DNA of 64,000 bases from a virus, in IMG/VR virus record IMGVR_UViG_3300005077_000011, positions 21,002 through 85,001 of that record; one strand, given 5' to 3'. The notes under the pieces are model-generated. The model was not told the DNA's origin. It made no database searches and was given only the letters and a program-made list of their open reading frames with translations. The translations under genes were made by a program, and so were the position numbers. Of this stretch, positions 4,275 to 46,926 are shown piece by piece. The number at the start of each line of letters is the position of its first letter. The first letter of the stretch is position 1.

Positions 4275-5426
4275 ATGACAAATTTTTCAAATCCTAATTT
4301 TAATACTAATTTATCTAGCTGGAAAGCAGGCAAGATTGCAAACGAAATAGCAGGTTTGTATTTTTGGCATGACGCGACTCAAATGTCTGCTAATGATGGA
4401 GATTCTCTAGGACAAATTGATGATGAAAGCGGAAGTGATTATCATGTTACACAATCAACATCAACTGTAAAACCAACATATAAAAATAACGAAACAGACA
4501 ATATTAATAGTCTTCCTTGTTTTTATTTTGATGGCGGAGATAGAATGACATCAAGTGAAACAACACCATTGACAGATGATTGGACAATGTTTGAGGTCGG
4601 GGTTGTAGGTTCATCCGGAAACTGGAAAACATTTTTAGGGTTTGGAACAGAAGGAGCCTCAGGAAACGCATTATTTAGTTATGGTCCTACTCCATATCTT
4701 CATTTTAATCCTGCTTGGAGTGGAGGTTGGGATACTTCAAATGCGGCTAACACAACAGATTCACATGTTTCTTTAACATATAGAACTGGAACAACAATTT
4801 CTGGTTCTGTAAATGCACAAACTGAAGCAACAGGAAGTTACTCTCTTACTTATAGAAATGGACATATACTTGGAGATTATACTTCTGGAGGAGGACAGGG
4901 TTATTATGGTAGAATTGGAGAAATTTTTGCTTATACTAGTAATTTATCTGCACAAAATAAATCTTATATAATATCGAATCTTGCTCTAAAATGGAATGCT
5001 GACATTTCTTCTGGAGTGTATGGAGCAAGAATAACAAGAGACACGGGAACTACATATTCAGGAAATAATACAGCAAAAATAGTATCGGCGACAAATGATG
5101 CATTAACTCCATTTTTTGAGACTATTAATATAGGAGACACAGGAGATTATAATTTAGTTTGTTATGCATATACTTCTGGAGCAGAAGTTACAAGCTCTGA
5201 TGTAGAATTATATCATAATGGATCAGCAATAACAACTACTTTTACAAGTATGGGAAGCGGGTGGTACAAACTTAATGCAGTTATAACGGGAACTGTAACA
5301 AACGTAAAATATGGAGTTGAGGTAAAGACAAACAAAACAGTGTATGTAACAGGTTTCAATTTAGAGTCACAAACTCCTTTTATGATAACAAGCCCTTTTA
5401 TGAAAAGGGGCGTAAGAATAATATGA
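4275..5426 (+). CDS. Virion-associated lectin/jelly-roll protein (LamG-like insert); paralog of 5663-6832
   Basis: FWHDA..D.SG..YHVTQST..P.YK and GRIGEIFAY motifs; end-to-end similarity to the next large ORF. Confidence 0.55.
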   Translation: MTNFSNPNFNTNLSSWKAGKIANEIAGLYFWHDATQMSANDGDSLGQIDDESGSDYHVTQSTSTVKPTYKNNETDNINSLPCFYFDGGDRMTSSETTPLTDDWTMFEVGVVGSSGNWKTFLGFGTEGASGNALFSYGPTPYLHFNPAWSGGWDTSNAANTTDSHVSLTYRTGTTISGSVNAQTEATGSYSLTYRNGHILGDYTSGGGQGYYGRIGEIFAYTSNLSAQNKSYIISNLALKWNADISSGVYGARITRDTGTTYSGNNTAKIVSATNDALTPFFETINIGDTGDYNLVCYAYTSGAEVTSSDVELYHNGSAITTTFTSMGSGWYKLNAVITGTVTNVKYGVEVKTNKTVYVTGFNLESQTPFMITSPFMKRGVRII

Positions 5427-5635
5427 ATTTAGAAGTAAAAGTCAAAGAAGAAATTCAAGTTTTTGATATATTCGAAAATGCTATTCGATATATCATTAAT
5501 GAAATAAAAAAGTGGTTTGAAAGTGAAGATCAACGGCCTATTACAATTATTGTGTCAAAAAATTCAGAAAGAGGTCCTCCTACACTTGGAGTAAATATAT
5601 CAGAAAGGGTTCGTACAAACGAAGCTCTTAGTTAA
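5423..5635 (+). CDS. Small hypothetical protein with VxExIxVxE-like motifs
   Basis: ATGA-coupled; motif shared with the giant protein. Confidence 0.5.
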   Translation: MNLEVKVKEEIQVFDIFENAIRYIINEIKKWFESEDQRPITIIVSKNSERGPPTLGVNISERVRTNEALS

Positions 5636-5649
5636 TAAGAGCTTTTTTT
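5622..5649 (+). terminator. Terminator-like hairpin AAGCTCTTA-N5-TAAGAGCTT plus T-tract
   Basis: 9-bp stem with a U-tract; same core as 3975. Confidence 0.65.
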
Positions 5650-5662
5650 GTGTATAAATATT

Positions 5663-6832
5663 ATGGCTAATTTTGCAAATGCAGGATTTGAAACAGATTT
5701 ATCAAATTGGAATGCAGGAAAAATTCCTACAGAAATTGCTACGCCTTCTTTTTGGATAAAAGCTGATGCAATTGAAGGATTAAGTGATAATGATACTATA
5801 AGCCAGTGGGATGACTTATCAGGAAGTAATTATCATGTCACACAATCAACAGAAAGTTATCGGCCTACGTATAAAACAAATATAGCAGGATCTTTACCGG
5901 CTGTTTATCAAAATAATTCGAACTATTATCTAGAAAATACTTCTTATCCTGCAATAGGACAAAGCGATTTTACATGGTTTGCTGCAGCAAGGTCAAATGG
6001 TACTGCAGGAAATTGGAGAACAATATTCCAATTAGGAACAGCAGGATCTAATCAATCATTTACTCATGGAGAATATAATGGCACTCTTAGATGGAACAAT
6101 GCTCGCTATGGAAATGATTTTTATGTTCCAACAGATGAGTTAGCTGATGATGTATGGCATGCTAATTCTGGAAAATCATATAGCTCAGATCAATATAATG
6201 GGTGGTGGGATCTTGGAGATACGTCTTCTGGAACAGTTACTCAAGATATAAACATACAAGGAAATCAAATCTCTATAGGAAGATGGGTAAATATAGGATA
6301 TAACTGGAATGGATATATAGGAGAAGTTATTATTTATACGTCAGCCCTTTCAGATGCAAATAGAGCTTTAATTCAGTCTTATCTTATTAAAAAATGGGGA
6401 GTCAGTGTCGATTCTGCAGTGTTTGATCATGGCGGAATAATGGAAAGAAATACTACAACAAAATATGCTGGAAATGCTAGTGCAAAAATTACAGTAAAAA
6501 GTGACACAGATATTCCTTTTTACGAAAATATAAATCTAGGAACAGGACAATATGATATTTCATGTTATGCATACACAACTGGATCAGTAATAACAAATGC
6601 TGATCTTGAATTGTATTATAACGGTTCAGCAGTTACAACAAGTTTTATAGACAAAGGAAGCGGCTGGTATCAATTAACAGCAACAATCTCTGGAGCAAAT
6701 GAATCAAGAAGTGTAGGAGTAATAGTAAAAGCGGGAAAAACGGTATATGTGGATAGTTTTGATGCTTCAGTTAGTGCAATAGATCCTAATGCATTTAAAA
6801 TAAACTTTTCAAAATATATACAGGTAACATAA
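5663..6832 (+). CDS. Virion-associated lectin/jelly-roll protein (LamG-like insert)
   Basis: MANFANAGFETDLSNW parallels MTNFSNPNFNTNLSSW of 4275; GYIGEVIIY; start moved to ATG 5663. Confidence 0.55.
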   Translation: MANFANAGFETDLSNWNAGKIPTEIATPSFWIKADAIEGLSDNDTISQWDDLSGSNYHVTQSTESYRPTYKTNIAGSLPAVYQNNSNYYLENTSYPAIGQSDFTWFAAARSNGTAGNWRTIFQLGTAGSNQSFTHGEYNGTLRWNNARYGNDFYVPTDELADDVWHANSGKSYSSDQYNGWWDLGDTSSGTVTQDINIQGNQISIGRWVNIGYNWNGYIGEVIIYTSALSDANRALIQSYLIKKWGVSVDSAVFDHGGIMERNTTTKYAGNASAKITVKSDTDIPFYENINLGTGQYDISCYAYTTGSVITNADLELYYNGSAVTTSFIDKGSGWYQLTATISGANESRSVGVIVKAGKTVYVDSFDASVSAIDPNAFKINFSKYIQVT

Positions 6833-7125
6833 TGGAAATAAATGTTAGTGAATCAATTTTAGTCTTAGATTATCTAGCAAATCAGCCAGATATTATTGAA
6901 GTGTCCGAGACAGTTTTTGTATCTATACAAGAAGCAGATTCAAGAACTATTAATATTTCTGAAACAATAACGTTAACTGATATTCCACAATATTATGATG
7001 ACACAATGTGGATTCTAGAAAATATATCTATACAAATTGAAAGTTCTGGTCCTTCAGAACCTGACATTGATATAAATATGTTAGATTATGAGGAGCAAGG
7101 TGTTCGAATAACTACACCTAATTAA
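6832..7125 (+). CDS. Small acidic protein with VSESI/ISETITLTD motifs
   Basis: TAATG-coupled; repeat motif shared with the giant protein. Confidence 0.55.
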   Translation: MEINVSESILVLDYLANQPDIIEVSETVFVSIQEADSRTINISETITLTDIPQYYDDTMWILENISIQIESSGPSEPDIDINMLDYEEQGVRITTPN

Positions 7126-7129
7126 ACAT

Positions 7130-7816
7130 ATGAATAATTCTAAAACAATATTAATCGGAATGCCTTCAGGCAGTGGAATGGTTCCAACTATCATGTTGCA
7201 ATCTTTATTAATGCTACACAAACCATATCCTTGTGCATTTTTAAGCGTAGAAAGACAACGAGTTGATAAGGCACGAAATCACATGACAATGGAGGCTTTA
7301 AGAGGTGGATTTGATTATCTTTTCTTTGTAGATGACGATAATCCAATTCCTATAGACACACTTGAAAAATTTATTGAAGATGACAAGGATATAGTATCAG
7401 CACCAATATTGGGACGAAATCCAGACAAAAATGGAATACATCCTTTATGTTGTTTTTATGCTAGAGAAATTATTGCAGACAAAAAACCATTGAAATTGTA
7501 TTTTCCTGTGACTCAATTCAAAGAGAATCATTACTTACATAAAGTAGATGCTACAGGAACAGGATGTCTTTTAATAAAGCGTAAGGTTTTAGAAAAACTC
7601 AATACAATTTATCAAGACTCAATATTTGAATTTGGTGATATAAAGTTTAATGAAAAAGTTACAGTTGACGGAAAAGAATATGACAGACGAACAATGAGTG
7701 AGGACTGCGAATTTTCTGAACGAGCTGTAAAAGCAGGATTTGAAATCTGGGTTGATGAAAGAATTAAACCAATTCATTTGACAACTCTTGGAAGTATAAG
7801 GTGGAATAATGGCTAA
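7130..7816 (+). CDS. Glycosyltransferase, GT-A fold
   Basis: LFFVDDD, ATGTGCLLIKR, SEDCEF. Confidence 0.7.
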   Translation: MNNSKTILIGMPSGSGMVPTIMLQSLLMLHKPYPCAFLSVERQRVDKARNHMTMEALRGGFDYLFFVDDDNPIPIDTLEKFIEDDKDIVSAPILGRNPDKNGIHPLCCFYAREIIADKKPLKLYFPVTQFKENHYLHKVDATGTGCLLIKRKVLEKLNTIYQDSIFEFGDIKFNEKVTVDGKEYDRRTMSEDCEFSERAVKAGFEIWVDERIKPIHLTTLGSIRWNNG

Positions 7817-10800
7817 TTGGGATATTACAACAGCTGGAAGTGCCTTTGAGTTTGAAACAACTTTAATGGCACACCCTACAAAACCGTATGTAATAGATAC
7901 GAATCACTTTTTCGTGTCATATCAAGGAGCTGCATCAGACGGTTTTGCTTCTGTGTTTGCTGTAAATACATCCACTTGGGCTGTAACTGAAGCTGGAACA
8001 CTTGAACATGATACACAAAATCAAACATGGTCATCTTGTGTTCAAATAGATACTAACCATTTCGCAGTTTGGTATCTTGGAAGCACCACAACAACTGATG
8101 CATATGTACAAACATTTGCTGTAAATACATCTACTTGGGCAATAACAACTTCTGCAGCAAGATTCTTATTTGATACTGATGTCGGATCACACAATGATGC
8201 TTTATGGATAGAAGGCACTCATTATATCAATTTCTGGACAAGTGCTTCATCAGACGGTTTTGCACAGACATTTGATATTAATGCAAGTACTTATGTTGTT
8301 ACTACATCTTCTGCTCAATTTGAGTTTGATACACAAAATCATACTTACGGCGCGACAGCTAAAATAGACACAAATCACTTTATTCACTTCTGGCTTGGAG
8401 GAGCAACAACAACTGACGGTACAGTTCAAGTTTTTGCCGTTGACACTTCAACATGGGCCGTATCAACAGCAGCTGCTTTACTTAGATTTGACACAGATGT
8501 TGGATCTTGGAACGCTTGTTACAAAATAGATGCTAATCATTTTATTAACTTCTGGACAGGTGCGTCTGGAGATGGTTTTACACAAGTCTTTACTGTTAAC
8601 ACTTCTACTTGGGCAGTTACTACTGCAGCCGCGCAATTAGAGTTTGATACTCAAAATCATCAAACAAATTCTAAATATTCTGTTGCAAGACTTGATGATA
8701 ATCACTTCTTGTATGTATGGGCTGGACCCGACACGGGAGCATCTACAAATTATGACGGTTTTGCTCAAGTTTTTGAAGTTAATACATCTACTTGGGTAGT
8801 TACAACAGCAGGAGCTCCATTTGAGTTTGATACTACTGAGGGTGAGTATAATGCTATTTCTGAGATAATAGCTGAAACAACTAATAAGCTTCTTCATATA
8901 TTTGTGGGAAGTGGAAATGATGGATATGCAGAAGTATTAAGTGTCGAAATTCCTAGAAGTGTAAATGTGTCAGAATCAATAACACTTTCAGAAAGCACAG
9001 ATTTGTTAGTTCCTATATCATTAAATGTAAGAGTTTCTAATTCAGCAGATATTTATGCTGCTACTTCTGACGCAGAGTTTACTCGCAGTGAATCAACTTG
9101 GGATAGTGTCCACAATGCAGCTACTTCAACAGGAGGATATTCAGCTACTGGAGATAATACCGTACAGTCACAATATGATGGTTCTTCTACTTATTCTCTT
9201 GGAAGATATTTAGCTAACTTTGATACGTCAGGAATTTCTTTAAATGGAAATGTAATTGACAGTGTTATATTCAATGTTAGAGGTTCTTGGCAAAACGGCG
9301 GAGTAAATCTTTATATTATTCCACATACATCAAATGATCTTTCAAACTCAAGCTCATATTCTTCTATTGATTTTACAGATTGTTGTTCTCCATTTACATT
9401 GACTCAAAATGTATGGTCAAATATAACTCTTAATAATAATGGTATAGGCAACATTAATCTTGGTGGAACAACAAAGTTTGCAATAGTAACAGATGATGAC
9501 TTTGAAGACAGTACTCCTACTTTGTCTTCTTACAATTCTGCTTTTAATTCTGGAGATTCTGCAAATCCTCCTTATATTACTGTTAATTATTTTGCCTATG
9601 AATTAGTTGTTATTTCAGAATCTGTAAATATAGCAATCACAAGCGATTTTGAAAAATCAATATCTGTAAATGATTCTATAACTTTGACAGAAAATAAATC
9701 TGTTTCAATTAGCTCTTCTCAAGTTTCAGTTTCTGAAACAATAACTTTGACAGAAGACAAAAACGGATTAATTGCTATAGCAGCTTCTTCTTTTGAAAAT
9801 ATTTCTGTTACGGAAGACAAATCTGCTCTTATTGCTTTACTTATTAACGTCCTTGGCTCTGCCACAAATACAAACTGGTATGATGCTACAGCAACATCTT
9901 CTAGTGTTAGTATGACAGATCCTGATAATGGATGGACAGATAATGGAGCTTATGCAGTCTTTAATGCATTAAATGATGCAGTAACGTATAGAATAGAGGC
10001 CGATTTTGGAATACCAACAAATGCTGTTATTTCTGGTGTCGAAATTAAATTAAATATTAAATACACAGGAGCAGGTCTTAATAGAGAAGCTGGAGTAAAA
10101 TTTACAAAAAATGGTGGAACAAACTGGTCCTCTCAAAAAACAGCAGAAATTAGCGATACAACGGATTATGATGAAACTTTTGGAAGTTCTTCAGATATAT
10201 GGGGAAGAACTTGGACTCCTGCTGATTTTAATAATAATGTCAACTTACTTGTTAATATTTCTCTCAATTCATTTTCTGTAACTTCGATAGACCTAGACGC
10301 TGTTTCAATGAGAGTATATTATCAAACAGCAGGAGAAGGAATTACTCTCTCAGAGTCTGCAGGTGCTTCTGTTGTTACTCCACCTCTTGATGACAATAAT
10401 GCTTCTTCATTTGAAAGTATATCGATTTCAGAGTCTTATTCAGTTGCTATAAATAATTTAAGCATAACAGCATCTGATTCAATTTCAATATCAGAAAATA
10501 AAAATTCTTTAGTTAGTGATTTATTATTAAGCGTTTTTGATTCTGTCACATACAATGAATTTTCTATTTTAAATATTTCTACTATATTGATAAACGTATA
10601 TGAAAATATTTCTCTTGTAGATTCTTCAATTATCACTTTTGTGATTCAGCTTTCTACTTCTGAAAATGTATCAATAACAGAAAATTATGAAGTTCAAAGC
10701 AGCACTCTTCAAATTAATTCTTCTGAAAGTATTTCTATTAGTGAAAGCAAAAATGCACAAATTGATATTCTTCAAATTTTAAAAGAAGAAAATATAATTC

Positions 10801-13800
10801 TAAGTGAAGCAAATATTAATTCTATTAGTACACTATTAATTAATTCTTCTGAAAATATTTCTGTAACAGAAAATAAACAATTGTCAATTAATGAATTAAC
10901 TATTTCAAAGTCAGAAGGAATTACAATTTCTGAACAAGTAGTTTCATTTGAACAATCTTTTCTCAGCGTGTTTGATTCAATTGCTATAGAAGAGTTTTGT
11001 GATGTTTATATTATTGAAGTTTCTGCAAATGAAGTAAATACAACAGAAAATATATCTATTTCTGAACAAAAGCAATTGTTGCTAACATCATTTTTGTCTG
11101 TCTCTGAAAGTATTTCAATAACAGAAAATAAAAGTATTTCAATAATTGATGTTTTGCCTATTGAACTTCAAGTATTTGAAAATATTTCAACAACAGAAAA
11201 TATTTATCAAAATATATCAACTTTAAGCATAAATTCTTCAGAAAGTATTTCTGTAAACGAAAATATACAAAGATATTGTTCTATAGAGTTTACAGTTTTT
11301 GAGAATATTTCATTAACAGAGAACAACAAATTTGAACTATTATGTTTTATTGCTCATTTAGAAAACATAAGTGTTAGTGAGCAAAACACAATAGAAATTC
11401 AGTCATTTATACTTGTTCAGGAAAATGTATCAATAACAGAAAATAAAAATTGTTCAATTAGTGATGAATCTATTTCAAAAGAAGAAATTATCTCTATAAA
11501 TGATTCTTCTTCAGTATATTTAGAAAATGAAAGCTTCTACCAAGTATTTGTTTTTGAAAATGTTTCTCTTTCTGAGAATATAGAAACATATGAAAATGTT
11601 ACAACTTCTGTCAATGATCAAGTAAGCATATCAGAAAATATAGAAACAGCATCAGGAAATATTAACATTATTGTTGATGAACAAATAAGCATAAATGAAT
11701 CTTCAGAATGTTTTATATATTATGCTTTATTTGTTTCTGACACAATTGCATTGTCTGAATCAAAAACACTTAATTATCCTCGTTATTGGGTAGCAGACGG
11801 AGGAAACTGGAATGACACAGCACACTGGAGTGCTCAGTCAGGAGGAACAAGCGGAGCCTCTGTTCCAGACGCAAATGCATTAGTTTACTTTGATGAAAAT
11901 TCTTTTGATAATATTAGCCAAACAGTTACAATTAATGCAACTGGCTATTGTAAAATATTAGATTTTTCTAATGTCACTAATTCTCCAACAATTGCAGGAT
12001 CATTTAATCTTAATTTATATGGAGATTTAACATTATCTTCAGAAACTACATTCACTCACACAGGACAATTCAGATTTAACAGCGATGCTGTTTTAACAAC
12101 AAATAATAGTTCTACATGTCCAAAAATACAAATATTGAATTCTTCAACTGTTGATTTAGTAGGCGATTATACAGAAGATTATTCAACAACTGCTATTCAA
12201 GTTTCTTTAGGAAGATTTAATGCAAACGGATACACTATATCAGCTTATTCTATAGATTTAGGTGCTTCAGGCACAAGAGTTTTAGATTTGACTGATTCTA
12301 CTGTTTATATTACAGGAACTGGTGGAACAACTATTTTATTTGCTAATTCATTTCCAACTAATGTTTCAATAATAACAACTAATTCTAATCTTGTATTTAC
12401 TCAACCAGTTTTGACAAATAGTTTTAGACCTGGAGGGGCAACTTTTAATGCAGTTGAAATTTATGGATCATTAAAAATTAATAGCAATTCAGGAACTTTT
12501 GGTAATTTTACATTAGCAAGTGGCGCGAATACTTTGTCTCTTGATAAAAACTATACTTATACTTTTACAGGAGATGTTAATCTTTCAGGAACAGCTGGAT
12601 ATAATAATTCATTAGTTTCTTCTGTTACAGACTCTCAAGCAACTATTTCTAAATCTTCTGGCATTGTTGTTGCTGATTATCTTAATATAAAAGATTCTAA
12701 TGCAACAGGAGGAGCAACATGGATTGCTGATATTCATTCAGTAAATGATGGAAATAATTCTGGGTGGATATGGACATTACAACCTTCAGTATCAGAAAAT
12801 ATTTCTGTAACAGACACACCTGAAGTTTTTGAAGGAGTAATAAGCTTCTATGAAGTTTCAGTTAATGAAGAAATAGCTTTAACAGATTCTGCTACAATAT
12901 TAATAGAAAATTATTGTGTTAATGTTTATGAAGAAATTTTGCTTACAGAAGAAATAAATGCAACTCTTGCTTATAATGTTTCTTCCGTAGAACAAGTATA
13001 CATAACTGACTATCCTCATCATTATAGAGACACAATATATGTTTATGAAAATATTAATCTTCATATGTATGAAGGTTCAATGCCTTCATTTATTGATGTA
13101 AGTGATCAGGTAAATACTTCAGAAAGTATTTCTGTCGAAAATTCTAATTGTTTTGTTTTTGCTTCAGAAGAAATATCATTGTCAGAAAATATTGCTTTTT
13201 ATAACAATATTAATCTTTTTGTCTACGAAAATATCTCAATAACAGAAAGCATTTCTTTTAACATTAGTTTAGAAATATTTGCTCAAGAAACTGTAAATAT
13301 AAATGAATATAAAAATGTTGAAATAATAATTTATACTGTTAATTCTGAGAGCATAACATTAATAGAAAACATAGAAACAAATATTGGTAATTTAAGTATT
13401 TTCTCATTAGAGAATATCAATATTTTAGATTCTTTGATTACTAATTTAGATAATATTGCTATTTATAGTTTTGATTCAATAAATATAAATGAATCAAATG
13501 ACTCTCAACTTAATGATTTAATTGTATCAGTTTTTGAGCTAATAACAATTACAGAAAATTATTCTAACTTTTTGAATTTAGAATTTTTCGTTCTTGATAA
13601 TATAACTGTCGAAGAAAATATTCTAATAAATGTTCAAGAGCTTTTGTCTGAAATAACAACTTCTGAAAATATTTCTGTAATAGATACTCCGCTTGCTTTA
13701 ATTCAAATTCCAAACGTTCCTCAGATTGTAGTTTCTGATTCAATTTCAATATCAGAAAACTCAATAGTTGAAGTAGATATCTACGGAATACTTGTTTCAG

Positions 13801-18833: not shown

Positions 18834-21436
18834 TGGCAAACTTAGCAAACATTAATGTTTCTATCACAGCAGTTGATAACACAGGGCCCGGCATAAATTC
18901 CGCAACAAGTAATCTTTCACGGTTAGGAGGCGGAATTGGTAGTATCGGGACTATTGCTTCGGGTGTCTTCGGCGGAATATTGGGTGTAAATGTTTGGCGA
19001 ACTATTTCTTCAGGCATAGGCAATGTTGTTTCTTCAGCACTAACACTTAATAGCAGAATGTCTCAATCTCAAATGGCTGCTGCCTCTATGGTTGATGCTA
19101 TTTCTAATGCAGGAACAGAGGGAGAAAGCTCTTTTGGAACTCTTTCAAAAGCTGCTGCTTCATATGAGAAAACATTAAGAGAAATTCAAGAGCGAGAAAA
19201 AGACGGATTAGATGATTATGCTGATAAAGTTGATGATATTAAAAATAGAATTCTATCAGCACAACAAGATTTAGCAAGAAAACTAGATGATATTAGAAAA
19301 AAAGAAAAAGAACGCTTAGATGATTTAAATGAATCTCATTTAGAATCTATTCAAGATCTTAATACTCGAGTAGAAGACGAAAATTATGATTATAATGAGC
19401 GTCTTTATGACATGGCAAATTCACGTCAAGATAAACTTGACAATCTAGAGGAGTCTCATTCAAATAAAATTAAAAGTATCAAAGAAGATTTATTTGATTT
19501 AGAAAATGAATTACTTGATGCTACATCAGAATCAGAAAGAAATAAACTTGAAGCAAAAATTGCTCTATTAAAACAAGCAGCAATAGAGGAAAACTCTTCA
19601 TATGAAGCAGAAAAATTAAAAATTAATGAAAGAGCAGATCATGAAATTCAAGTGGTCAAAGATAAACACAATAGAGAAATAGCTTCTTTGCAAGAAAGAA
19701 TTAGCAGAGAAAATTCAGAATATGATAAGCGAAAAAGTAGAATAACAGCTGATGCAAATAATGATATAGCAGAATCAAAACGAGTTTCAGAAGAAAAAAT
19801 TAAAGGTCTCAACGATCAATTAGCTAAAGAAAAAGAATCTCATGAAAGATTTTTAAGAGATATTCAAGAAGCATATAAAGATGCTTCAGCAAAATTAAAT
19901 GAAAGCATGTCAGGTGGCGGAGGAGCCACTATGAAAAGAATTAATTTTGATTTTGATTTTAATAAAAATCTTAAAAACATGGGCCAAGATGAAATTTCAA
20001 AATTCTTGGATGAAGTTCAGGATAAATATATCAAGATAGGTATTAAATCTCCCTTCAATATAGCAGACATTCAAGAGTTTGGAAAAACAATGATTCGTTA
20101 TACTGACGGTTCTTCTGAAAACATGGAGAAAATTCTAGGAATAGGTCAGGCACTTGCTGCTTTTAATCCTATGCAAGGAATACAAGGCGCAACTTTTGCT
20201 CTTAATGAATTGTTTGGAGCAGGAAATGTGCGTTCACTAATGACTCGTTTTAATCTTCCTCCCGATACATTTAAAGGTTTAGAAAATGCAAAAGACGCTG
20301 CTCAGGCTTTAGATATTTTGACAACAAGCTTAAATAATCTTGGAGTAAATCAAGAACTAGTGTCTGCTTATGCAAATGCTTTAGTTGGAGCACATCAAAA
20401 CGTTCTTGAAACTTTTAATGTATTAGCAGCAGCTTTAGCAAAACCAGTCTATGATAGACTCACAAATGCTTTAGTCCTTTTGAATAAATACATTGCAGAA
20501 CATTATGACGAAATTAAAAATGTTATAGCAGGTTTTGCTACTCTTATAGATGTTTCCTTTGCTTCTTTAATCAATATTGGAAAAACAGTTATACAATTCT
20601 GGCAAGATCATAGTACTGCAATTTCAGCAGTTGTGGGAATTATTACTCTTGCTTTATTGCCTGCATTGGCAAAATTAACAATTGAATGGATAGCAAACAC
20701 GACAAGAGGAATTATATCTTCAACAATTGCATTAGTTCAATGGGTTGCTCAAGGTTGGTTAGCTGTAGGAGCTTTAATTGCTAAAATTGTTCAGTTTGGA
20801 CTAGCAACAGCAGCAGCTATTGCTCATACGGTTGTAACAATAGCAGGAACAGCAGCAACAACAGCTTGGACAGCAGCTGTATGGTTATTTAATGCTGCAA
20901 TGGCAGTTCTTACTTCGCCAATATTTTTAGTTGTTGCAGCTATCGCAGCTGTTATTGCTATTGGATATTTATTAATAAAAAATTGGGATGCTATAAAAGC
21001 TGCAGGAACTTCAATGTGGCAAGCTCTTCAAAATACTGTAGAAAATGTATGGAAAGGAATTACTTCAGCTGTCAAAGGCGGACTTAACAGTATTATAGAT
21101 GGAATCAATGGTTTTATTAATGGGCTCAACGACAAATTAGGCAAGACTAAAATGAAAATTGGAAATGTTGAAATTGGAGGTTGGCAAATACCAACAATTC
21201 CAAAATTAGCAGAAGGAGGAATTGTTTCAAATCCAACTCTTGCTATGCTTGGAGAAGCTGGGCCTGAAGCTGTTGTTCCTCTTTCTAAGTCTAAAGGGTA
21301 TGGATCCTCTGCAACTTCTATATATGTAAATGTCACAGGAAATAATATAATAGATGATGAAACGGCAAACACTCTTGCTGATAAAGTTGGAAACTCAATC
21401 TTAAATAAAATAACTTTGCAAGGTAGATACATGTAA
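18833..21436 (+). CDS. Tape measure protein
   Basis: INVSITAVDNT start, long coiled coil, Ala/Trp-rich repeats, C-terminal IPKLAEGGIVSNPTLAMLGEAGPEAVVPL. Confidence 0.9.
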   Translation: MANLANINVSITAVDNTGPGINSATSNLSRLGGGIGSIGTIASGVFGGILGVNVWRTISSGIGNVVSSALTLNSRMSQSQMAAASMVDAISNAGTEGESSFGTLSKAAASYEKTLREIQEREKDGLDDYADKVDDIKNRILSAQQDLARKLDDIRKKEKERLDDLNESHLESIQDLNTRVEDENYDYNERLYDMANSRQDKLDNLEESHSNKIKSIKEDLFDLENELLDATSESERNKLEAKIALLKQAAIEENSSYEAEKLKINERADHEIQVVKDKHNREIASLQERISRENSEYDKRKSRITADANNDIAESKRVSEEKIKGLNDQLAKEKESHERFLRDIQEAYKDASAKLNESMSGGGGATMKRINFDFDFNKNLKNMGQDEISKFLDEVQDKYIKIGIKSPFNIADIQEFGKTMIRYTDGSSENMEKILGIGQALAAFNPMQGIQGATFALNELFGAGNVRSLMTRFNLPPDTFKGLENAKDAAQALDILTTSLNNLGVNQELVSAYANALVGAHQNVLETFNVLAAALAKPVYDRLTNALVLLNKYIAEHYDEIKNVIAGFATLIDVSFASLINIGKTVIQFWQDHSTAISAVVGIITLALLPALAKLTIEWIANTTRGIISSTIALVQWVAQGWLAVGALIAKIVQFGLATAAAIAHTVVTIAGTAATTAWTAAVWLFNAAMAVLTSPIFLVVAAIAAVIAIGYLLIKNWDAIKAAGTSMWQALQNTVENVWKGITSAVKGGLNSIIDGINGFINGLNDKLGKTKMKIGNVEIGGWQIPTIPKLAEGGIVSNPTLAMLGEAGPEAVVPLSKSKGYGSSATSIYVNVTGNNIIDDETANTLADKVGNSILNKITLQGRYM

Positions 21437-32727: not shown

Positions 32728-32756
32728 TGTACAAATATCTCTGAACAATGTATAAT
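32728..32756 (+). promoter_or_regulatory. Promoter TGTACA-N17-TATAAT
   Basis: Family match upstream of the dCTPase-like, E1, Ubl and E2 genes. Confidence 0.8.
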
Positions 32757-32774
32757 TTCTTAACCAGAGCAGCA

Positions 32775-33146
32775 ATGAAAAGAGAACAATATTTTTCAAC
32801 TATTTGTAAAGAGCACGATACTTATTTGAGCAAGATGAACAAGATCATTGCTGCTCTTGGTAGAAATGATTGTGTAAAGGAATATGAATTAATTGACAGA
32901 GTAGCATTTCATGTTATTGAAGAAATAATAGAAATGCGAAGAACATATCCTCATAAATTTTGGAAGCAAGCTAAAGAAGAAGTCAATAAAGAAGCTTTAT
33001 TAGAAGAAGCATCAGACATTTTTTTAATGTTTCGATCTATGTGGATAGAAGTGTGTAAAGTAAGTGGAGTATCAGAAGAAGAATTCTTATCTCATGTATT
33101 GACTAAAGTAAGAAAGAACCAACAACGTTTACAATCAGGATATTAA
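32775..33146 (+). CDS. All-alpha NTP pyrophosphatase (dimeric dUTPase / T4 gp56 dCTPase-like)
   Basis: EEIIE..KFWK, LLEEASDIF, TKVRKNQQRLQSGY. Confidence 0.7.
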   Translation: MKREQYFSTICKEHDTYLSKMNKIIAALGRNDCVKEYELIDRVAFHVIEEIIEMRRTYPHKFWKQAKEEVNKEALLEEASDIFLMFRSMWIEVCKVSGVSEEEFLSHVLTKVRKNQQRLQSGY

Positions 33147-33147
33147 T

Positions 33148-33834
33148 ATGATACAAGAAAATTTATTTAGTCGTCAATCAGGAATAATTCGTCCAGATGA
33201 ATTACAAAGACACATTCTGATTGTTGGAGCAGGCGGAATAGGCTCTTGGACAGCATTATCTTTATTAAAAATGGGAATGTCTAAAATAACAATTATAGAT
33301 TTTGACACAATAGAAGAAGCTAATCTAGCTCCACAATTTTATAATACTCAACACAACGGAATGTCAAAGGTAGAAGCTCTAGTAAAGCGCTTGACAGAAG
33401 AGGCTTTGCCTGGACAAGCAATTCAAGGTATACATTCTAAATGGGAAGATTGGGTCAACAAAGAAATATTTATTCAGGAACAATTTGTGGATATTGTTAT
33501 TATGGCAGTTGATACAATGGATGTTCGAATTAAAATCTGGAATGATATTAAATATCTTGGATTATTAGATGTTATAGACGCAAGAATGGCTAAAGAGATG
33601 CTAGAGATTTTTACAATAGATCCAACAAAAGAAGAAGATATTAAAATGTTTGAACAACATTTATTTCCTTCTTCTTCAGTAGAACATATACCTTGTACAG
33701 AAAGAGCAGTAGCATACAATCAATTTGTAATTGCTGGATTGATTGGGAGTACAGTAAAGCAATTTTTGAAAAAGGAATTGAGTTATAAAAGAATATTATT
33801 TGATCTTAACTCAATGTCATTAATAACACAGTGA
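33148..33834 (+). CDS. ThiF/E1-like activating enzyme
   Basis: FSRQ, GAGGIGS, DFDTIEEANL, VDTMDVR, DAR; candidate catalytic Cys in PCTERA. Confidence 0.9.
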   Translation: MIQENLFSRQSGIIRPDELQRHILIVGAGGIGSWTALSLLKMGMSKITIIDFDTIEEANLAPQFYNTQHNGMSKVEALVKRLTEEALPGQAIQGIHSKWEDWVNKEIFIQEQFVDIVIMAVDTMDVRIKIWNDIKYLGLLDVIDARMAKEMLEIFTIDPTKEEDIKMFEQHLFPSSSVEHIPCTERAVAYNQFVIAGLIGSTVKQFLKKELSYKRILFDLNSMSLITQ

Positions 33835-33848
33835 AGGAGGTGAATAGC

Positions 33849-34103
33849 ATGGAAAAAAGAAAAGTAAAGAAAGAAGAACTTGAGGCAGTTGTCCTTCGTT
33901 TTGGAGGAAAACCTCAAAGAGTAGCACTTGGAGAAGATTCCACAGTTCAAGACGCTATTGATGAAGCTGGCTTCACAGTAAAGCCAGGAGACGGAGTAAC
34001 AGTAAACGGTGAAACTGTCGACAAAGATGAGCTTGATGAAACACTTATCGAAGATGCAGACCGAGTTGTTATTACTCCTAGATTTGAAGGTGGAAATAAA
34101 TAA
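33849..34103 (+). CDS. Ubiquitin-like beta-grasp protein ending in GG-NK
   Basis: SD GGAGGTGA; STVQDAI, VTVNGE, LIEDADRVVITPRFEGGNK. Confidence 0.8.
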   Translation: MEKRKVKKEELEAVVLRFGGKPQRVALGEDSTVQDAIDEAGFTVKPGDGVTVNGETVDKDELDETLIEDADRVVITPRFEGGNK

Positions 34104-34121
34104 GATAAAAAAGAGAGCGGT

Positions 34122-34982
34122 ATGAACGACAAAGATCAATTATTACAATTTTTACGAACATCAGGCCCAGAAGTAGCTGAAAAAGCTGGCCTTTTAAAAA
34201 CAACAAACATCTTCGACAGGCTTCAAGATTTTGATATTAATAAAATATCAAGACAAGTTGCTGAACTAGATCTAGTTGCTCTCCGCTCTCTTTTGTCTGA
34301 CAAAAAACGAGCATCAGAAGAATTTAATAATAATTCACGTAAAATACGAGAACTTAGAGAGACTCTCAAATCTTTAGAACAAAGAATAGAAGTTTATAAA
34401 GATGTAGATAAGATAGTTGATGCAAGAAAGAAACAATTGAATAAAATTTTTAAGAATCTTTTTATACACCATGTTGAATACGTTGAGAACAATGTAACTA
34501 TTTTTACAACAGAATTTTTAAAGATAAAAGATAGACAGCTTGGAATATTTAGAATATGGATTGATTGGAATAAGTCAGATGCAAGAAGCGCTATTAGAGT
34601 AATAAACTTTTATAAACGTAATGGACAAAATGATCATCCTTGTGTTCAAAATGGACAGATATGTATGGGAAATGCTGATCAATCTATTAGAGAACATTAT
34701 GCACAAAAGGATTTATTTGTTTTATTAGAAACAATTATATCTTTCTTGTTGTCTGAAAATATTTCTCGTGGATATATACGAGAATGGAGTGTATGGTTAA
34801 AAGGGTGTGGAAGAGTTGCTCATGATTTTTCTTTTAGTTCATTAAATATTCGCCCTTATAAAACAACTCCTCCTGAGCCTTTAATAAGAGGAGCACAAGA
34901 ACAAGAAGCACAAGTACCTGTAGATCTTTATACAACTTTCACTGTTTCTAATGAAACATCTACAACTTATACTCCAATATGA
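34122..34982 (+). CDS. Coiled coil plus prokaryotic E2/UBC-like domain
   Basis: HPCVQNGQICMGN resembles the UBC HPNxxxxGxIC active-site motif; lies in an E1/Ubl/JAB neighbourhood. Confidence 0.65.
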   Translation: MNDKDQLLQFLRTSGPEVAEKAGLLKTTNIFDRLQDFDINKISRQVAELDLVALRSLLSDKKRASEEFNNNSRKIRELRETLKSLEQRIEVYKDVDKIVDARKKQLNKIFKNLFIHHVEYVENNVTIFTTEFLKIKDRQLGIFRIWIDWNKSDARSAIRVINFYKRNGQNDHPCVQNGQICMGNADQSIREHYAQKDLFVLLETIISFLLSENISRGYIREWSVWLKGCGRVAHDFSFSSLNIRPYKTTPPEPLIRGAQEQEAQVPVDLYTTFTVSNETSTTYTPI

Positions 34983-35016
34983 AACTTTACAGCAAATTTT
35001 GTTCCAGCTTTTTAAT

Positions 35017-35193
35017 ATGAAAACGCCAGAATATATGAAATACAAATGCAGTAGATGCGGACAAGAAATAACAGATTCAGATGATGTTCTAGTAATATCT
35101 GTTCTATTAAAAGAAAAAGAAGTGTTTGATCTATGCAATTGTTGTAAGAAAGACTTCAAAGACTTCATGAAAGCTTTGAAAACGAAAGTATAA
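35017..35193 (+). CDS. Small zinc-ribbon protein
   Basis: CSRC...CNCC; start uncertain (35017 or 35035). Confidence 0.5.
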   Translation: MKTPEYMKYKCSRCGQEITDSDDVLVISVLLKEKEVFDLCNCCKKDFKDFMKALKTKV

Positions 35194-35269
35194 TATGCAC
35201 TCTCTTTGTATTAAGTATATCTATATTCCAAAAATTCAGAGAAAAATAGAAGCGATTAAAAACTGGCTA

Positions 35270-35298
35270 TATACATTTTTAAATAAATATATTAAAAT
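35270..35298 (+). promoter_or_regulatory. Promoter TATACA-N17-TAAAAT
   Basis: Family match with the CTA prefix; upstream of the JAB, kinase, GT and UDG genes. Confidence 0.6.
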
Positions 35299-35319
35299 AT
35301 AAGAACATAAAGGAGAATT

Positions 35320-35985
35320 ATGAAAGTTATTTTATCACATTTAGCAGATCTTAAACTTAAATATTATGTTGAGAGTATTGATTATGAAATTTCTGGCGTA
35401 GGTCTTGTAGAAAAAAAAGACGGAGATATTGTTGTCAAAGATATATTTCTTATAAAGCAAGAAGTGTCTCATGCAGAAACTAAATTAAACTCAAAGGCAG
35501 TAAGTGATTTTCTTATAGAGAAATGTCAGATAGAGGGATTCCCGGTTGAAAACATAAAACTTTGGTGGCATTCTCATGTTAATATGCAGACATTCTGGTC
35601 TCAAACAGATGATGATACTATTGACGGATTTGATCAAGACTCTAAAGAAGATAATTGGTATTTGTCTATAGTCTGCAATAAACAAGGACATCGAAGAGCA
35701 AGAGTAGATATATATTATCCTTTTAGAGTTGTTATAGATGAACTACAAATATCAACAGATGAAGATCATGACCTCGAGAAATCTATTAAAGAAGAAGTAA
35801 ATAAACTTGTTTCTGTTAAACAAAATGAAGGTCCAAAGTTATTCAATGGAGCTGGAGAAATAATTGGTGGAGCTAATTTTGCAAAAGAAGACGATGAAGA
35901 CAAAGAAACTTCTTTCTACAGAGGTGGCGGAGGCGGAGGATTTAATCACAAACATAAGAATAGAAATAAATATTGGAAACATTAA
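35320..35985 (+). CDS. JAB/MPN metalloprotease
   Basis: YEISG catalytic Glu; WHSHVNMQTFWSQTD (HxH..S..D). Confidence 0.85.
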   Translation: MKVILSHLADLKLKYYVESIDYEISGVGLVEKKDGDIVVKDIFLIKQEVSHAETKLNSKAVSDFLIEKCQIEGFPVENIKLWWHSHVNMQTFWSQTDDDTIDGFDQDSKEDNWYLSIVCNKQGHRRARVDIYYPFRVVIDELQISTDEDHDLEKSIKEEVNKLVSVKQNEGPKLFNGAGEIIGGANFAKEDDEDKETSFYRGGGGGGFNHKHKNRNKYWKH

Positions 35986-35986
35986 T

Positions 35987-36586
35987 ATGATGTACATATT
36001 CGAAGGTATTGATGGGGCAGGCAAGGATACATTGATTGCTAAGATTAAACAAACAGTTAGTATTCCTGTTTTCAATGGCTTTAATGTATATGACCAAAGC
36101 GAATTTACTCATATTCATCCATTTGTTGGTGATAAAAAAGAATGGCAAAAAGCAATAGGGTTTGAAATAGTAAACTATTGTAAGCAAGCTCAGTATAGTG
36201 TTATAATCAATCGCTTTACTTGGTCTGAGATAGTTTATTCTAAAGTACTTAGAAATCAAGCAGACACGGCTTGGTATTGGGACATAATGGAAAAAGAGCT
36301 TCAAGGAATAGCTAAAATAATTTATGTTGATGTAACAGCAGAAGAAGCAGAAAAACGAATAAAAAAGTCTGGAAGACATAAGTCTAAATTAGTTCTTAGC
36401 AAGCTAAATGAAATGCGTAAAGAGTTTTGGAATCTTATAGAAACGACTAAACTTCCAGTAGTATTAATTAATTCAATGACTCTATATGATAACAAAAGTT
36501 ATTTAGATGATCCTAGACTTTTTAGAGAAGTATGTGATGGAATTTTGTACAAAAATGATTTTAAATATGGATCTGTAATACTATGA
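35987..36586 (+). CDS. Thymidylate-kinase-like dNMP kinase
   Basis: FEGIDGAGKD P-loop, INRFTWSEIVY, IIYVDV; start moved to ATG 35987. Confidence 0.85.
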   Translation: MMYIFEGIDGAGKDTLIAKIKQTVSIPVFNGFNVYDQSEFTHIHPFVGDKKEWQKAIGFEIVNYCKQAQYSVIINRFTWSEIVYSKVLRNQADTAWYWDIMEKELQGIAKIIYVDVTAEEAEKRIKKSGRHKSKLVLSKLNEMRKEFWNLIETTKLPVVLINSMTLYDNKSYLDDPRLFREVCDGILYKNDFKYGSVIL

Positions 36587-45223: not shown

Positions 45224-45691
45224 ATGAACAATTTGCACACTAATACTCAGAATTCATTAAATGAACTTCAATTAATAGGAGCTGTCTTGCCAAGTGTGCA
45301 AGAGGGCATAAGCGTCCCATCAGATTTTTCTTCTATTCCGAATTTAGGAGAAGGAAATATAGGAGAGGTGATGGGACGTATTGCCTCATATATACAATAC
45401 TTAGAATATCAAACAAGCGTAGCAGAAGTTGACTATGAGATGTGGAATTCAGCTTTTGAGTTCGAGAAGAAGCGATTAATGCTCACTTTAGAAAATGAGC
45501 GAAGAGACTTAATGGAAGCGAAAGCTGAAGCACTTTTAGCAGATCAAAAGAACAATGTAATGCAGCGATACTCAAAAATGAAATTATTAAAAGCAATTTT
45601 GGAAGGTCAGAAAAGAATCTCAGATGCTCTGTCAAGAGAATTATCTAGAAGATCTTTGGTCTTACAAATGCAACGAGGAGGGATACAATGA
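45224..45691 (+). CDS. Helical protein, possibly a UvsY-like recombination mediator
   Basis: Heptad-rich, ends ALSRELSRR; near recA. Confidence 0.35.
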   Translation: MNNLHTNTQNSLNELQLIGAVLPSVQEGISVPSDFSSIPNLGEGNIGEVMGRIASYIQYLEYQTSVAEVDYEMWNSAFEFEKKRLMLTLENERRDLMEAKAEALLADQKNNVMQRYSKMKLLKAILEGQKRISDALSRELSRRSLVLQMQRGGIQ

Positions 45692-46926
45692 AATATTCTT
45701 TATTACCATTCTTTGATGGTCACGATGACGAAGTAAACACAATACTTCAAGCAGAAGATAAAAGACAGAATGAAACTATTGAACTTATTGCTAGTGAAAA
45801 CTTTGCTTCTCCCTGGGTAAGAGCAGCACAAGGCAGTATATTCACTAACAAATATGCTGAAGGTTACCCAGGAAAGAGGTACTATGGTGGATGCAACAAC
45901 ATGGATACAGCTGAGTCTCTTGCGATATCTCGTGCTTGTAAACTTTTTAACTGTTCTTATGCTAATGTTCAACCGCACTCCGGTTGTCAAGCGAATATGG
46001 CAGTTTATTTTTCGCTTCTTAAACCAGGGGATAAGATCTTATCACTTAAGCTTGATCATGGTGGACACCTTTCACACGGTTCTCCTGTTAGCTTTAGCGG
46101 TCAATTGTATAATGTTGTTCATTACCCTTTAGATCCAGAAACGGAGATGATTGATTATGATGTTATCGAAGAAATTGCTCAGAAAGAAAGACCGAATCTT
46201 ATTTTATGCGGTGCCTCTGCTTATAGTCGTATTATTGATTTTGAGCATATTGGAAGTATTGCCCGTTCTGTGGGTGCTATTTCTATGGCTGATATTGCTC
46301 ACATCGCTGGGCTTGTTTCAGTAGGTCTTCATCCTAGTCCTTTTCCAGCCATTGACGTGGTCACCTCAACCACTCACAAGACACTTCGTGGTCCAAGAGG
46401 AGGTATTATACTTACTAACAATGAAGAGTATATAAAGAAGATCAACAAAACAATATTTCCAGGAATTCAAGGCGGTCCATTGATGCATGTAATTCTTGCT
46501 AAAGCTGTAGCTTTTGGAGAAGCTTTAAAACCAGAGTTTAAAGAGTATCAAAATAATGTAATCAAAAATGCTAAAGCTTTTTGTGAAGCTATGAAAATGT
46601 ATGGATGGAGAATTGTTGCGGAAGGAACAGATAATCATTTATTCTTAATTGATCTTAGAAGTAGAAATGTAGATGGAGTATGGGCACAAGATCATTTAGA
46701 TTCAGTTAATATAACTGCAAATCGGAATGCTATTCCTTATGACCCACAACCCCCTTACAAACCAAGCGGTCTTCGGCTTGGCACACCTGCAATGACAACT
46801 AAAGGGTTCAATGAAAAGGCTTTTGAGCTTACAGCAGATTTAATTACTCGAGCATTAACAGAAAAAGATAATGACGAAGAAATCATATTAGAAGTACAGG
46901 CATTATTAGATCAATATACAAAATAA
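45688..46926 (+). CDS. glyA: Serine hydroxymethyltransferase
   Basis: ELIASEN, NKYAEGYPGKRYYGG, NVQPHSG, GGHLSHG, TTHKTLRGPRGG (PLP Lys), SGLRLGTPA. Confidence 0.97.
   Translation: MKYSLLPFFDGHDDEVNTILQAEDKRQNETIELIASENFASPWVRAAQGSIFTNKYAEGYPGKRYYGGCNNMDTAESLAISRACKLFNCSYANVQPHSGCQANMAVYFSLLKPGDKILSLKLDHGGHLSHGSPVSFSGQLYNVVHYPLDPETEMIDYDVIEEIAQKERPNLILCGASAYSRIIDFEHIGSIARSVGAISMADIAHIAGLVSVGLHPSPFPAIDVVTSTTHKTLRGPRGGIILTNNEEYIKKINKTIFPGIQGGPLMHVILAKAVAFGEALKPEFKEYQNNVIKNAKAFCEAMKMYGWRIVAEGTDNHLFLIDLRSRNVDGVWAQDHLDSVNITANRNAIPYDPQPPYKPSGLRLGTPAMTTKGFNEKAFELTADLITRALTEKDNDEEIILEVQALLDQYTK

Follow-up and report, generated by a model that had tools for sequence, protein, structure and literature searches.

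A candidate ubiquitin-like protein-conjugation cassette with a minimal E1 and a coiled-coil E2-fold protein in a phage genome

To our knowledge, the conjugation of ubiquitin-like proteins (Ubls) in prokaryotes has so far been characterised either as an anti-phage weapon, as with Cap2 of CBASS, with Bil and probably with Bub, or as archaeal housekeeping. Here we describe five plus-strand genes at positions 33148-35985 of a 64,000-nucleotide stretch of viral DNA (positions 21,002 to 85,001 of IMG/VR record IMGVR_UViG_3300005077_000011; this whole stretch is hereafter called the window), encoding an activating enzyme (E1), a Ubl, a conjugating-enzyme-like (E2-like) protein, a zinc ribbon and a JAB protease. 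The original prediction, made from the DNA sequence only, had named these five genes by their motifs (an E1 with a lone Cys, a Ubl ending in GG-NK, an E2 with HPCxxxGxIC, a zinc ribbon and a JAB) and had taken them to be a complete module carried by a phage. All five genes with their named motifs were present on the plus strand, the E1, the GG-masked Ubl, the E2-fold protein and the JAB were each identified, and the window is part of a virus record of 89,947 bp with a CheckV completeness of 96%. We consider it probable, at roughly 0.7, that these genes form a self-contained, phage-encoded cassette for Ubl conjugation to proteins.

Described systems and the place of the phage cassette

Among the described systems, Bil (BilABCD, types I and II; operon class 6d/6C of Iyer et al. 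2006) shares with the phage cassette the separate encoding of a Ubl, an E2, a JAB deubiquitinase and an E1, as well as a Ubl having residues past its conserved Gly, which in Bil are removed by JAB before a Cys-dependent conjugation (PMC10557695). In type II Bil it is the JAB of the operon itself that trims the Ubl precursor (PMC10557695). Bil is, however, a host-encoded defence, whereas the present cassette is carried by a phage. The BilD E1 is composed of an inactive and an active adenylation domain with a helical CYS insertion and a Zn site (PMC10557695), in contrast to the phage E1, which consists of a single ThiF domain of 228 aa, has one Cys and lacks Zn ligands. BilB furthermore has a conserved His after its Cys, which is missing from the E2-like family (consensus CWGN...F...DL in 110 sequences), while that family has retained an HP ahead of its Cys and carries an additional coiled coil, and the PADLOC models miss both the E2-like protein and the JAB.

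The gene content is also shared with the operon of Caldiarchaeum subterraneum, comprising Ub, an E1-like and an E2-like protein, a small RING protein and an Rpn11-like JAB, and the likeness includes a small zinc-finger gene placed beside the E2 (PMC3082918, PMC5654768); among solved structures, its Rpn11-like protein was also the one that the phage JAB matched best. Descriptions of the archaeal Ub and E2 call them eukaryote-like, whereas the phage Ubl is ThiS-like, its E2-like partner is missed by the UQ_con model and both have diverged much further; the phage zinc protein, with only four Cys residues, is itself not conserved. With type II CBASS the cassette has in common a related adenylation domain, found by PADLOC at E=2e-15 and with Cap2 among the matches in the PDB, together with a JAB partner (Cap3 in CBASS). 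Cap2 is, however, an E2-E1 fusion that conjugates the CD-NTase in a system with no free Ubl, whereas the phage encodes separate proteins, among them a free Ubl, and no model of a CD-NTase or an effector was matched among ten neighbouring proteins scanned with PADLOC.

Three further comparisons concern smaller parts of the cassette. A small single-domain E1, a ThiS-like protein ending in GG and a JAB able to unmask that GG are also known from the ThiS/MoaD and ThiF/MoeB pairs (PMC1779556), but in the phage cassette an E2-fold partner is always present, CxxC pairs, a rhodanese and a sulfur-using enzyme are lacking, and the scores stay far under the equivalog cut-offs. Like the cassette, the Bub operons pair a peptidase of their own with divergent E1, E2 and Ubl proteins, with the difference that the Bub E1 lacks a catalytic Cys and that Bub uses oxyester intermediates and a serine protease (PMC11601596), whereas the phage E1 and E2-like protein keep invariant Cys residues and the peptidase is of the JAMM type. 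The PRTRC systems of plasmids and integrative and conjugative elements, finally, also place a ThiF-family protein on a mobile element (TIGR03736 PRTRC_ThiF), to which the phage E1 was weakly matched (E=3.7e-9, 36 bits versus a cut-off of 144.75), while no PRTRC model matched the E2-like protein, the Ubl or the JAB.

Searching 50,697 GenBank phage records with the region as nucleotide sequence and with the E2-like protein, the JAB and a distant E2-like protein gave no match, and a search of 185,579 prokaryote species genomes with one peptide pattern, to be read as a weak negative, gave no confirmed relative of the E2-like family. A single-protein search of IMG/VR with the E2-like protein of the window also found nothing, profile searches then yielding the loci L006-L017 described below. 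In the database sources the relatives carry only the label 'hypothetical protein', and the protein-atlas clusters of the E2-like family were mostly viral. We found no paper on a phage-encoded E1-Ubl-E2-JAB cassette in the full-text literature, of which coverage was incomplete. We regard the phage-borne cassette, with its minimal E1 and a coiled-coil E2 of a family that no model covers, as a new variant of the prokaryotic Ubl-conjugation systems.

Identities of the encoded proteins

The E2-like protein (286 aa; 34122..34982, plus strand) had been predicted to carry a ubiquitin-conjugating (UBC) fold, an alpha/beta fold that combines an N-terminal helix, a four-stranded antiparallel sheet and C-terminal helices, and analysis with hidden Markov models (HMMs) and structure prediction found that fold present, with globular PDB matches that were all E2s. 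Using the family alignment as input, AlphaFold2 modelled the whole protein at a predicted local distance difference test score (pLDDT) of 88.9, and the domain alone at 94.4 with a predicted template modelling score of 0.88. The model has a short N-terminal helix followed by a long coiled-coil helix (aa 39-93, nt 34236-34400) and a UBC-fold domain (aa 95-241, nt 34404-34844) made of a helix, a sheet and further helices, whereafter a disordered C-terminal tail (34845-34982) ends with TYTPI.

Relatives were collected by an HMM search of 1.84 billion representatives, which gave 221 of them at E up to 1e-3, and in an alignment of 110 sequences C181 and G183 were invariant, with T130, G141, I145, N162 and P173 nearly so. 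The predicted HPCxxxGxIC motif is real (H172-P173-C174-x3-G-x-I-C181, with HPC at 34635-34643 and the codon of Cys181 at 34662-34664), but only one of its two Cys residues is kept across the family, the invariant C181, while C174 is not conserved. At the positions equivalent to the HPN of canonical E2s the family has H, S or A first and C, T or H last, the central Pro alone being near-invariant.

Comparison with solved structures pointed to one family throughout. Foldseek against the PDB returned almost only E2s (UBE2S, UBE2L6, UbcH7, Rad6, Ubc13 and UFC1) at E=0.02-0.04, with template modelling (TM) scores between the domain and E2 structures of about 0.50 in both directions, and VIA-align superposed the domain upon UBE2S with Z=7.5 and a root-mean-square deviation of 4.0 Å over 128 of 148 residues. 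A scan of 48,161 chains, independent of Foldseek, placed E2s at ranks 1-13, followed by RWD domains (Z=6.5) and otherwise by coiled coils and single helices. A profile of the domain, compared with PDB sequences, had UbcH7 as all nine of its top matches (E about 0.04-0.06) with an end-to-end alignment, a result that required the domain-only profile, as the full-length profile gave only coiled-coil noise. In that alignment the HP of the family falls on HPN, Cys181 on the Cys of GQVCLPV and a helix-plus-SPN segment on LIALVNDPQ, so that, in the sequence register of the HMM alignment, Cys181 is spaced like the catalytic Cys of E2s, a residue that in those enzymes lies in the loop following strand 4, some 7-8 residues past HPN. 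Clusters of the AlphaFold DB contained cellular relatives at E=3e-8 to 4e-4, of which one had been automatically named 'UBC core domain' and two 'RING-type domain' (E=3e-6 to 1e-4 for the entries so named); a search of the BFVD library of viral structures gave nothing significant. Scans of the E2-like protein with Pfam, PHROG, PADLOC and NCBIfam gave only coiled-coil noise, no Pfam domain was found in any of ten relatives scanned, and UQ_con touched only 2 of the 110 family members (E=0.013).

Because three independent methods agree on one family and one active-site register, we accept the E2 fold, the case being built on matches that are uniformly E2s and span the whole domain and not on the size of any score. 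The protein is thus probably a divergent E2 fold, as modelled, with Cys181 as its probable catalytic residue. The coiled coil, which the original prediction had suggested might select targets in place of an E3, is conserved as part of the family core and has more the look of an element for dimerisation. ThiF-type E1s are normally homodimers, and the coiled coil together with such an E1 partner suggests that the E2-like protein is dimeric. A complex prediction with the E1, the Ubl (residues 20-88) and the E2-like domain (residues 95-245, as the scored partner) gave a score of 0.00 and weighs neither way.

The tail of the E2-like protein varies in a manner of its own. In the subfamily of about 280 aa to which the gene of the window belongs, the disordered tail ends with an acidic stretch followed by [V/I/S]-P-F (DDVPF, DEVPF, DDDSNVPF or EDSPF), as seen in the family members P0002-P0005 and P0011-P0013 and in the gene at 7095-7991 of a related phage contig (L009); a PF end was found in eight of the ten nearest relatives, the TYTPI of the window being a degenerate version. 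No other open reading frame (ORF) of at least 80 aa in that related contig ended with P-F or P-I. The combination of acidic residues and PF resembles the C-terminal tip of the bacterial single-stranded DNA-binding protein (SSB), onto which replication and repair enzymes dock. One could speculate that phages of several lineages run a Ubl pathway of their own, in which a dimeric coiled-coil E2 would pick its targets by variable ends and the SSB-tip-like tail would bring the E2 to those replisome proteins of host or phage that interact with SSB, for tagging during infection. Both in the window and in L009 the cassette lies inside a module for replication and DNA modification, which such a role would fit; we regard this reading as a long shot.

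The E1 (228 aa; 33148..33834, plus strand) is a minimal, single-domain adenylation protein of the ThiF/MoeB type, matched by Pfam ThiF over residues 21-214 (E=1e-25) and having both the N-terminal RQ motif and GxGxxG, which together with the conserved Asp and Arg residues are features of the Rossmann-type adenylation domains of the E1/ThiF superfamily. Its sole Cys is C183 (codon 33694-33696) and CxxC pairs are absent, in agreement with the lone candidate Cys and the missing zinc pairs that had been predicted. R9, Q10, G27, G29, G32, D51, D53, N59, Q63, K74, D122, R127, R146 and C183 were invariant among 14 phage E1 homologues. A profile of these 14 homologues found UBA5 in the PDB at 9e-15, then Uba1, NAE, UBA6, TcdA, MccB, ThiF and MoeB. 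The PADLOC match covered only the E1 half of the CBASS E1-E2 models, and the NCBIfam model 6A-MBL cap2_3 matched at 7e-12, while the scores with the NCBIfam models for ThiF, MoeB, UbaA and PRTRC were all far under their cut-offs; judged from its sequence, the protein is a ThiF-superfamily enzyme outside every curated equivalog. The candidate thioester residue would be C183, in view of its invariance, and by position it may correspond to the crossover-loop Cys residues of UBA5 or MoeB, the PDB profile alignments themselves ending near residue 130-150 and thus short of it. At E1 residues ~55-64 (33310-33340) an N-L-A-P stands opposite the N-M-N-R of UBA5 and no Arg is found at this place across the phage family; the invariant R9-Q10 may provide the phosphate-binding Arg of the enzyme instead.

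The Ubl is encoded at 33849..34103 (plus strand) as an 84-aa pro-protein with a ThiS-like beta-grasp fold and the C-terminus RFEGG-NK, the Gly-Gly codons at 34089-34094 being followed by Asn-Lys at 34095-34100. Its match to Pfam ThiS was above the cut-off (E=2.4e-5; 25.2 bits versus 22.5), with the end of the profile falling on the GG, so that the beta-grasp protein with a di-Gly masked by NK stands as originally proposed. We take the ATG at 33849 as the most likely start, in preference to the GTG at 33831 listed by the ORF tool, because an AAGGAGG ribosome-binding site (33835-33841) is found just ahead of it. The GG was invariant in 13 Ubl homologues and followed by 0-3 variable residues (none, NK, VK, C, RA, R, QEC, GK or SF); this pattern, in which a short tail without conservation follows a fixed GG, marks precursors that need trimming by a protease, and cleavage is predicted. 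In two of the loci, L011 (9651-10061) and L013 (9654-10064), the Ubl consists of two tandem beta-grasp units, of which the first ends with VKGGG and is joined directly to the second, ending with GGR, an arrangement that resembles di-Ubl or polyubiquitin-type precursors.

The JAB (221 aa; 35320..35985, plus strand), predicted as a protease from its motif, was found to be a JAMM/MPN+ metalloprotease with the complete motif E23...H84-x-H86-x7-S94-xx-D97 (HxH...D at nt 35569-35610) and a Gly-rich, basic C-terminal tail. E23, H84, H86, S94 and D97 were invariant in three JAB homologues, and the profile of these three aligned its motif with that of the Caldiarchaeum Rpn11-like protein 6fjv (E=1.1e-4), followed by CSN5 and RPN11, while Pfam Prok-JAB remained under its cut-off (E=0.041). 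JAB homologues were found in 15 loci including the window. The enzyme is predicted to trim the Ubl after the GG and may possibly also deconjugate.

Between the genes for the E2-like protein and the JAB lies that of the accessory zinc ribbon (58 aa, CxxC...CxCC; 35017..35193, plus strand), which is outside the conserved core, being present only in the window and in one short metagenomic contig (L002). Since the homologue in L002 begins right after its E2-like gene, the start is most likely at 35017 and not at the listed ORF start 34951, which lies inside the E2-like gene. Its Pfam matches were below cut-off (Prok-RING_1 at E=0.0039 and zf_UBZ at E=0.067). The distant E2-like protein of L017, a locus that lacks the zinc ribbon gene, has a Cys-rich C-terminal extension of its own, which together with the RING-named relatives in the AlphaFold DB hints that E2s and zinc fingers are repeatedly associated.

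Recurrence of the four genes and their neighbourhoods

Further loci were gathered using profiles of the E2-like protein and the JAB, with their ORFs compared by BLAST and HMM. This gave 13 further contigs, namely four short metagenomic ones (L002-L005) and nine IMG/VR contigs of 25-152 kb, whose loci carry the labels L006 (identical with L014), L007-L013 and L015-L017. In 14 independent contigs of viral or metagenomic origin the E1, the Ubl, the E2-like protein and the JAB were found together, arranged in one of three orders (E1-Ubl-E2-JAB, Ubl-E2-JAB-E1 and E2-JAB-E1...Ubl), a co-occurrence that is far beyond chance. In all-against-all clustering, no other gene family was common to more than a few closely related loci.

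The original prediction had described the cassette as embedded among DNA-modification genes, which holds for the window and for L009 but not for the other loci examined. L009, a related phage of 94 kb, repeats the order of the window with DnaB, primase, SSB, NTPase, E1, Ubl, E2 and JAB, continuing with an epimerase/dehydratase, a P-loop protein and a glycosyltransferase-like protein and then with uracil-DNA glycosylase (UDG), thymidylate synthase and DnaE. At L009:8736-11148 the kinase and the 371-aa putative glycosyltransferase of the window are replaced by a NAD-dependent epimerase/dehydratase, an AAA_28/kinase-like P-loop protein and a Glyco_trans_1_2-like protein, a swap that suggests that the modified base carries another sugar there. 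The loci L004, L006-L008, L010, L011 and L017 lack DNA-modification neighbours. There we instead found SPFH and HNH genes (L006), GTP cyclohydrolase II and a GT2 glycosyltransferase (L007), a MoxR-like AAA protein and DUF2201 (L008), NrdD with its radical-SAM activase, a HAD phosphatase and a ClpB/ClpC-type AAA+ unfoldase (L010), or RtcB and NAD-salvage-like genes, with an isochorismatase and a QRPTase-like protein among the neighbours (L017). Because these neighbours are unrelated to one another, we regard the cassette as an autonomous module and the DNA-modification setting as lineage-specific.

Some of the loci showed additional features. In L010, a contig of 152 kb, a double-AAA+ unfoldase of the ClpB/ClpC type (843 aa, 9842-12373, with Clp_N, AAA, AAA_2 and ClpB_D2-small) is found one small gene past Ubl-E2-JAB-E1, with NrdD, its activase and the HAD phosphatase ahead of the cassette; a tag encoded beside an unfoldase might be a sign that tagging directs proteins to unfolding or degradation, as seen from this one locus. 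L017 (2979-9279) contains two JAB-E1 pairs (4403-6192 and 7920-9279) and an E2-like protein of 475 aa with a Cys-rich C-terminus that resembles a zinc finger. L006 (9933-10511) and L008 (9051-9629) each have, shortly downstream of the JAB, another ThiF-like gene of smaller size (192 aa, Pfam ThiF 2.9e-13), which in L006 is separated from the JAB by an HNH endonuclease gene.

In the window itself, which has about 33% G+C and nearly all of its genes on the plus strand, a dUTPase_2/MazG-type NTP pyrophosphatase (32748-33146) lies directly upstream of the E1, with DnaB-like, primase-like and SSB-like genes further upstream. Downstream follow a dTMP-kinase-like gene (35987), the 371-aa protein (a putative glycosyltransferase, otherwise unassigned), a family-4 UDG-like gene, a thymidylate-synthase-like gene and the DnaE polymerase, whose closest cultured relatives among GenBank phages are about 33% identical. 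The gaps between genes are 1-34 nt from 32748 to 35193, 126 nt before the JAB and 1 nt between JAB and kinase, consistent with the two gene units proposed earlier, one on the E1-Ubl-E2 side and one on the JAB-kinase side. For the shared promoter that the original prediction had proposed for the first unit no signal was seen: sigma-70-like sites were not enriched (32 found versus 37.6 expected from shuffled sequence), and neither a promoter and terminator scan nor an intergenic k-mer search gave anything above background or any repeated intergenic motif. The kinase ORF is listed as 35864-36586 from a TTG at 35864, overlapping the JAB gene by 122 nt; its start is more likely the ATG at 35987, which follows the JAB stop by 1 nt and closely precedes the P-loop (GIDGAGKDT), and the two genes are probably translationally coupled.

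Proposed pathway, alternative explanations and implications

Combining these identities, we propose the following pathway. The JAMM protease would cut the Asn-Lys off the 84-aa pro-Ubl, exposing its Gly-Gly, whereupon the minimal ThiF-type E1, probably as a homodimer, would adenylate the terminal Gly using ATP and probably load the Ubl onto its Cys183 as a thioester. The Ubl would then be handed to Cys181 in the E2-fold domain of the E2-like protein, probably dimerised by its coiled coil, and from there be moved to Lys residues of phage or host proteins, a transfer that the zinc ribbon or the variable extensions of the E2-like proteins may assist. The JAB may also reverse the modification. Bil provides a precedent, as its JAB deubiquitinase pre-processes the Ubl and the catalytic Cys residues of both E1 and E2 are needed for conjugation (PMC10557695).

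Several points weigh against such a pathway. Neither an E3 nor a candidate target was identified, the E2 models of Pfam (UQ_con and Prok-E2_A to E), PADLOC, PHROG and NCBIfam all miss the E2-like protein, and the Asn of HPN is absent, leaving the canonical triad incomplete. Each of the E2 scores is furthermore marginal when taken alone (Foldseek at E=0.02-0.04 with TM about 0.5, the profile at E=0.04 and a middling Z of 7.5), and the Arg of the UBA5 N-x-x-R motif aligns to a Pro in the E1.

The same weaknesses feed one alternative, namely that conjugation proceeds without an E2, as for archaeal SAMP/UbaA or for Urm1, with the E1 alone attaching the Ubl and the UBC-fold protein being a non-catalytic adaptor, similar to UEV or RWD proteins, or a substrate. 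The RWD domains among the structural matches, the missing Asn with the weak E2 scores, and a faint match of the Ubl to SAMP1 and of the E1 to UbaA would all suit that explanation. UEV- and RWD-type pseudo-enzymes, however, typically lack the catalytic Cys, whereas here Cys181 and Gly183 are invariant and Pro173 nearly so in 110 divergent sequences, and Cys181 aligns at catalytic spacing with the Cys that follows HPN in UbcH7, which makes a non-catalytic protein improbable.

Another possibility concerns the role of the cassette and not its mechanism, and it overlaps with the conjugation pathway proposed above. The same chemistry could be aimed at host immunity based on Ubls (Bil or type II CBASS), with the JAB stripping host conjugates or with the Ubl, E1 and E2 competing with defence proteins or modifying them. 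The resemblance of the phage E1 to the Cap2 E1 domain speaks for such counter-defence, and as the Bil systems of hosts tag phage tail fibres (bioRxiv 10.1101/2023.09.04.556158), phages would have a motive for it. On the other hand, PADLOC recognises neither the JAB nor the E2-like protein with any of its defence models, and a simple deconjugase would not need all four parts to be kept together; we find a dedicated counter-defence role unlikely.

A slightly poorer case can be made for a sulfur carrier, which the original prediction had offered as an option in the form of a sulfur relay for a thio-base. The Ubl, trimmed by JAB and adenylated by the ThiF-type enzyme, would then become a thiocarboxylate giving its sulfur to a thio-base, a tRNA nucleoside or a cofactor tied to the neighbouring DNA-modification genes. 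The named models with the top scores were indeed ThiS and ThiF/MoeB, sulfur-assimilation clusters having ThiS/MoaD proteins associated with JAB have been described (Iyer et al. 2006, PMC1779556), and in the window and L009 the cassette lies between the NTP pyrophosphatase and the kinase, glycosyltransferase, UDG and thymidylate-synthase-like genes. We nevertheless judge a sulfur relay unlikely because the phage has neither a rhodanese (PF00581) nor a PP-loop ATPase (PF01171), no match to either being found in its 96%-complete genome, although host enzymes could serve. The E1 moreover has no CxxC pairs and falls far under the NCBIfam cut-offs for ThiF and MoeB, known sulfur relays use no E2-fold protein such as the one with an invariant Cys found in at least 13 loci, always accompanying the other parts, and the link with DNA modification, confined to the window and L009, is missing at the seven loci without such neighbours listed above. 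The only match to an Aminotran_5-like domain (PF00266), a signal of 20.8 bits and under cut-off at 45982-46458 of the window, lies inside a serine hydroxymethyltransferase gene (glyA-like, 45688-46926) and is, from its sequence context, a relative by pyridoxal-phosphate fold and not a cysteine desulfurase. A Ubl/JAB pair for tail assembly of the lambda type (TAPI/TAPK) was rejected, the cassette lying among genes for replication and nucleotide metabolism and having an E1 and an E2.

If conjugation by this cassette holds true, the E2-like family would add a new branch to the evolutionary history of E2s, keeping the HP...Cys spacing of the eukaryotic enzymes while going unrecognised by the database models. 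The system would also be a very small one for biochemistry, with its 228-aa E1 and 84-aa Ubl, and it raises the concrete question of which host or phage proteins get tagged. With the cassette recurring in many uncultured viral contigs, a phage-owned set of E1, Ubl, E2 and JAB would mean that bacterial viruses, too, rewrite proteins with a ubiquitin-like tag.

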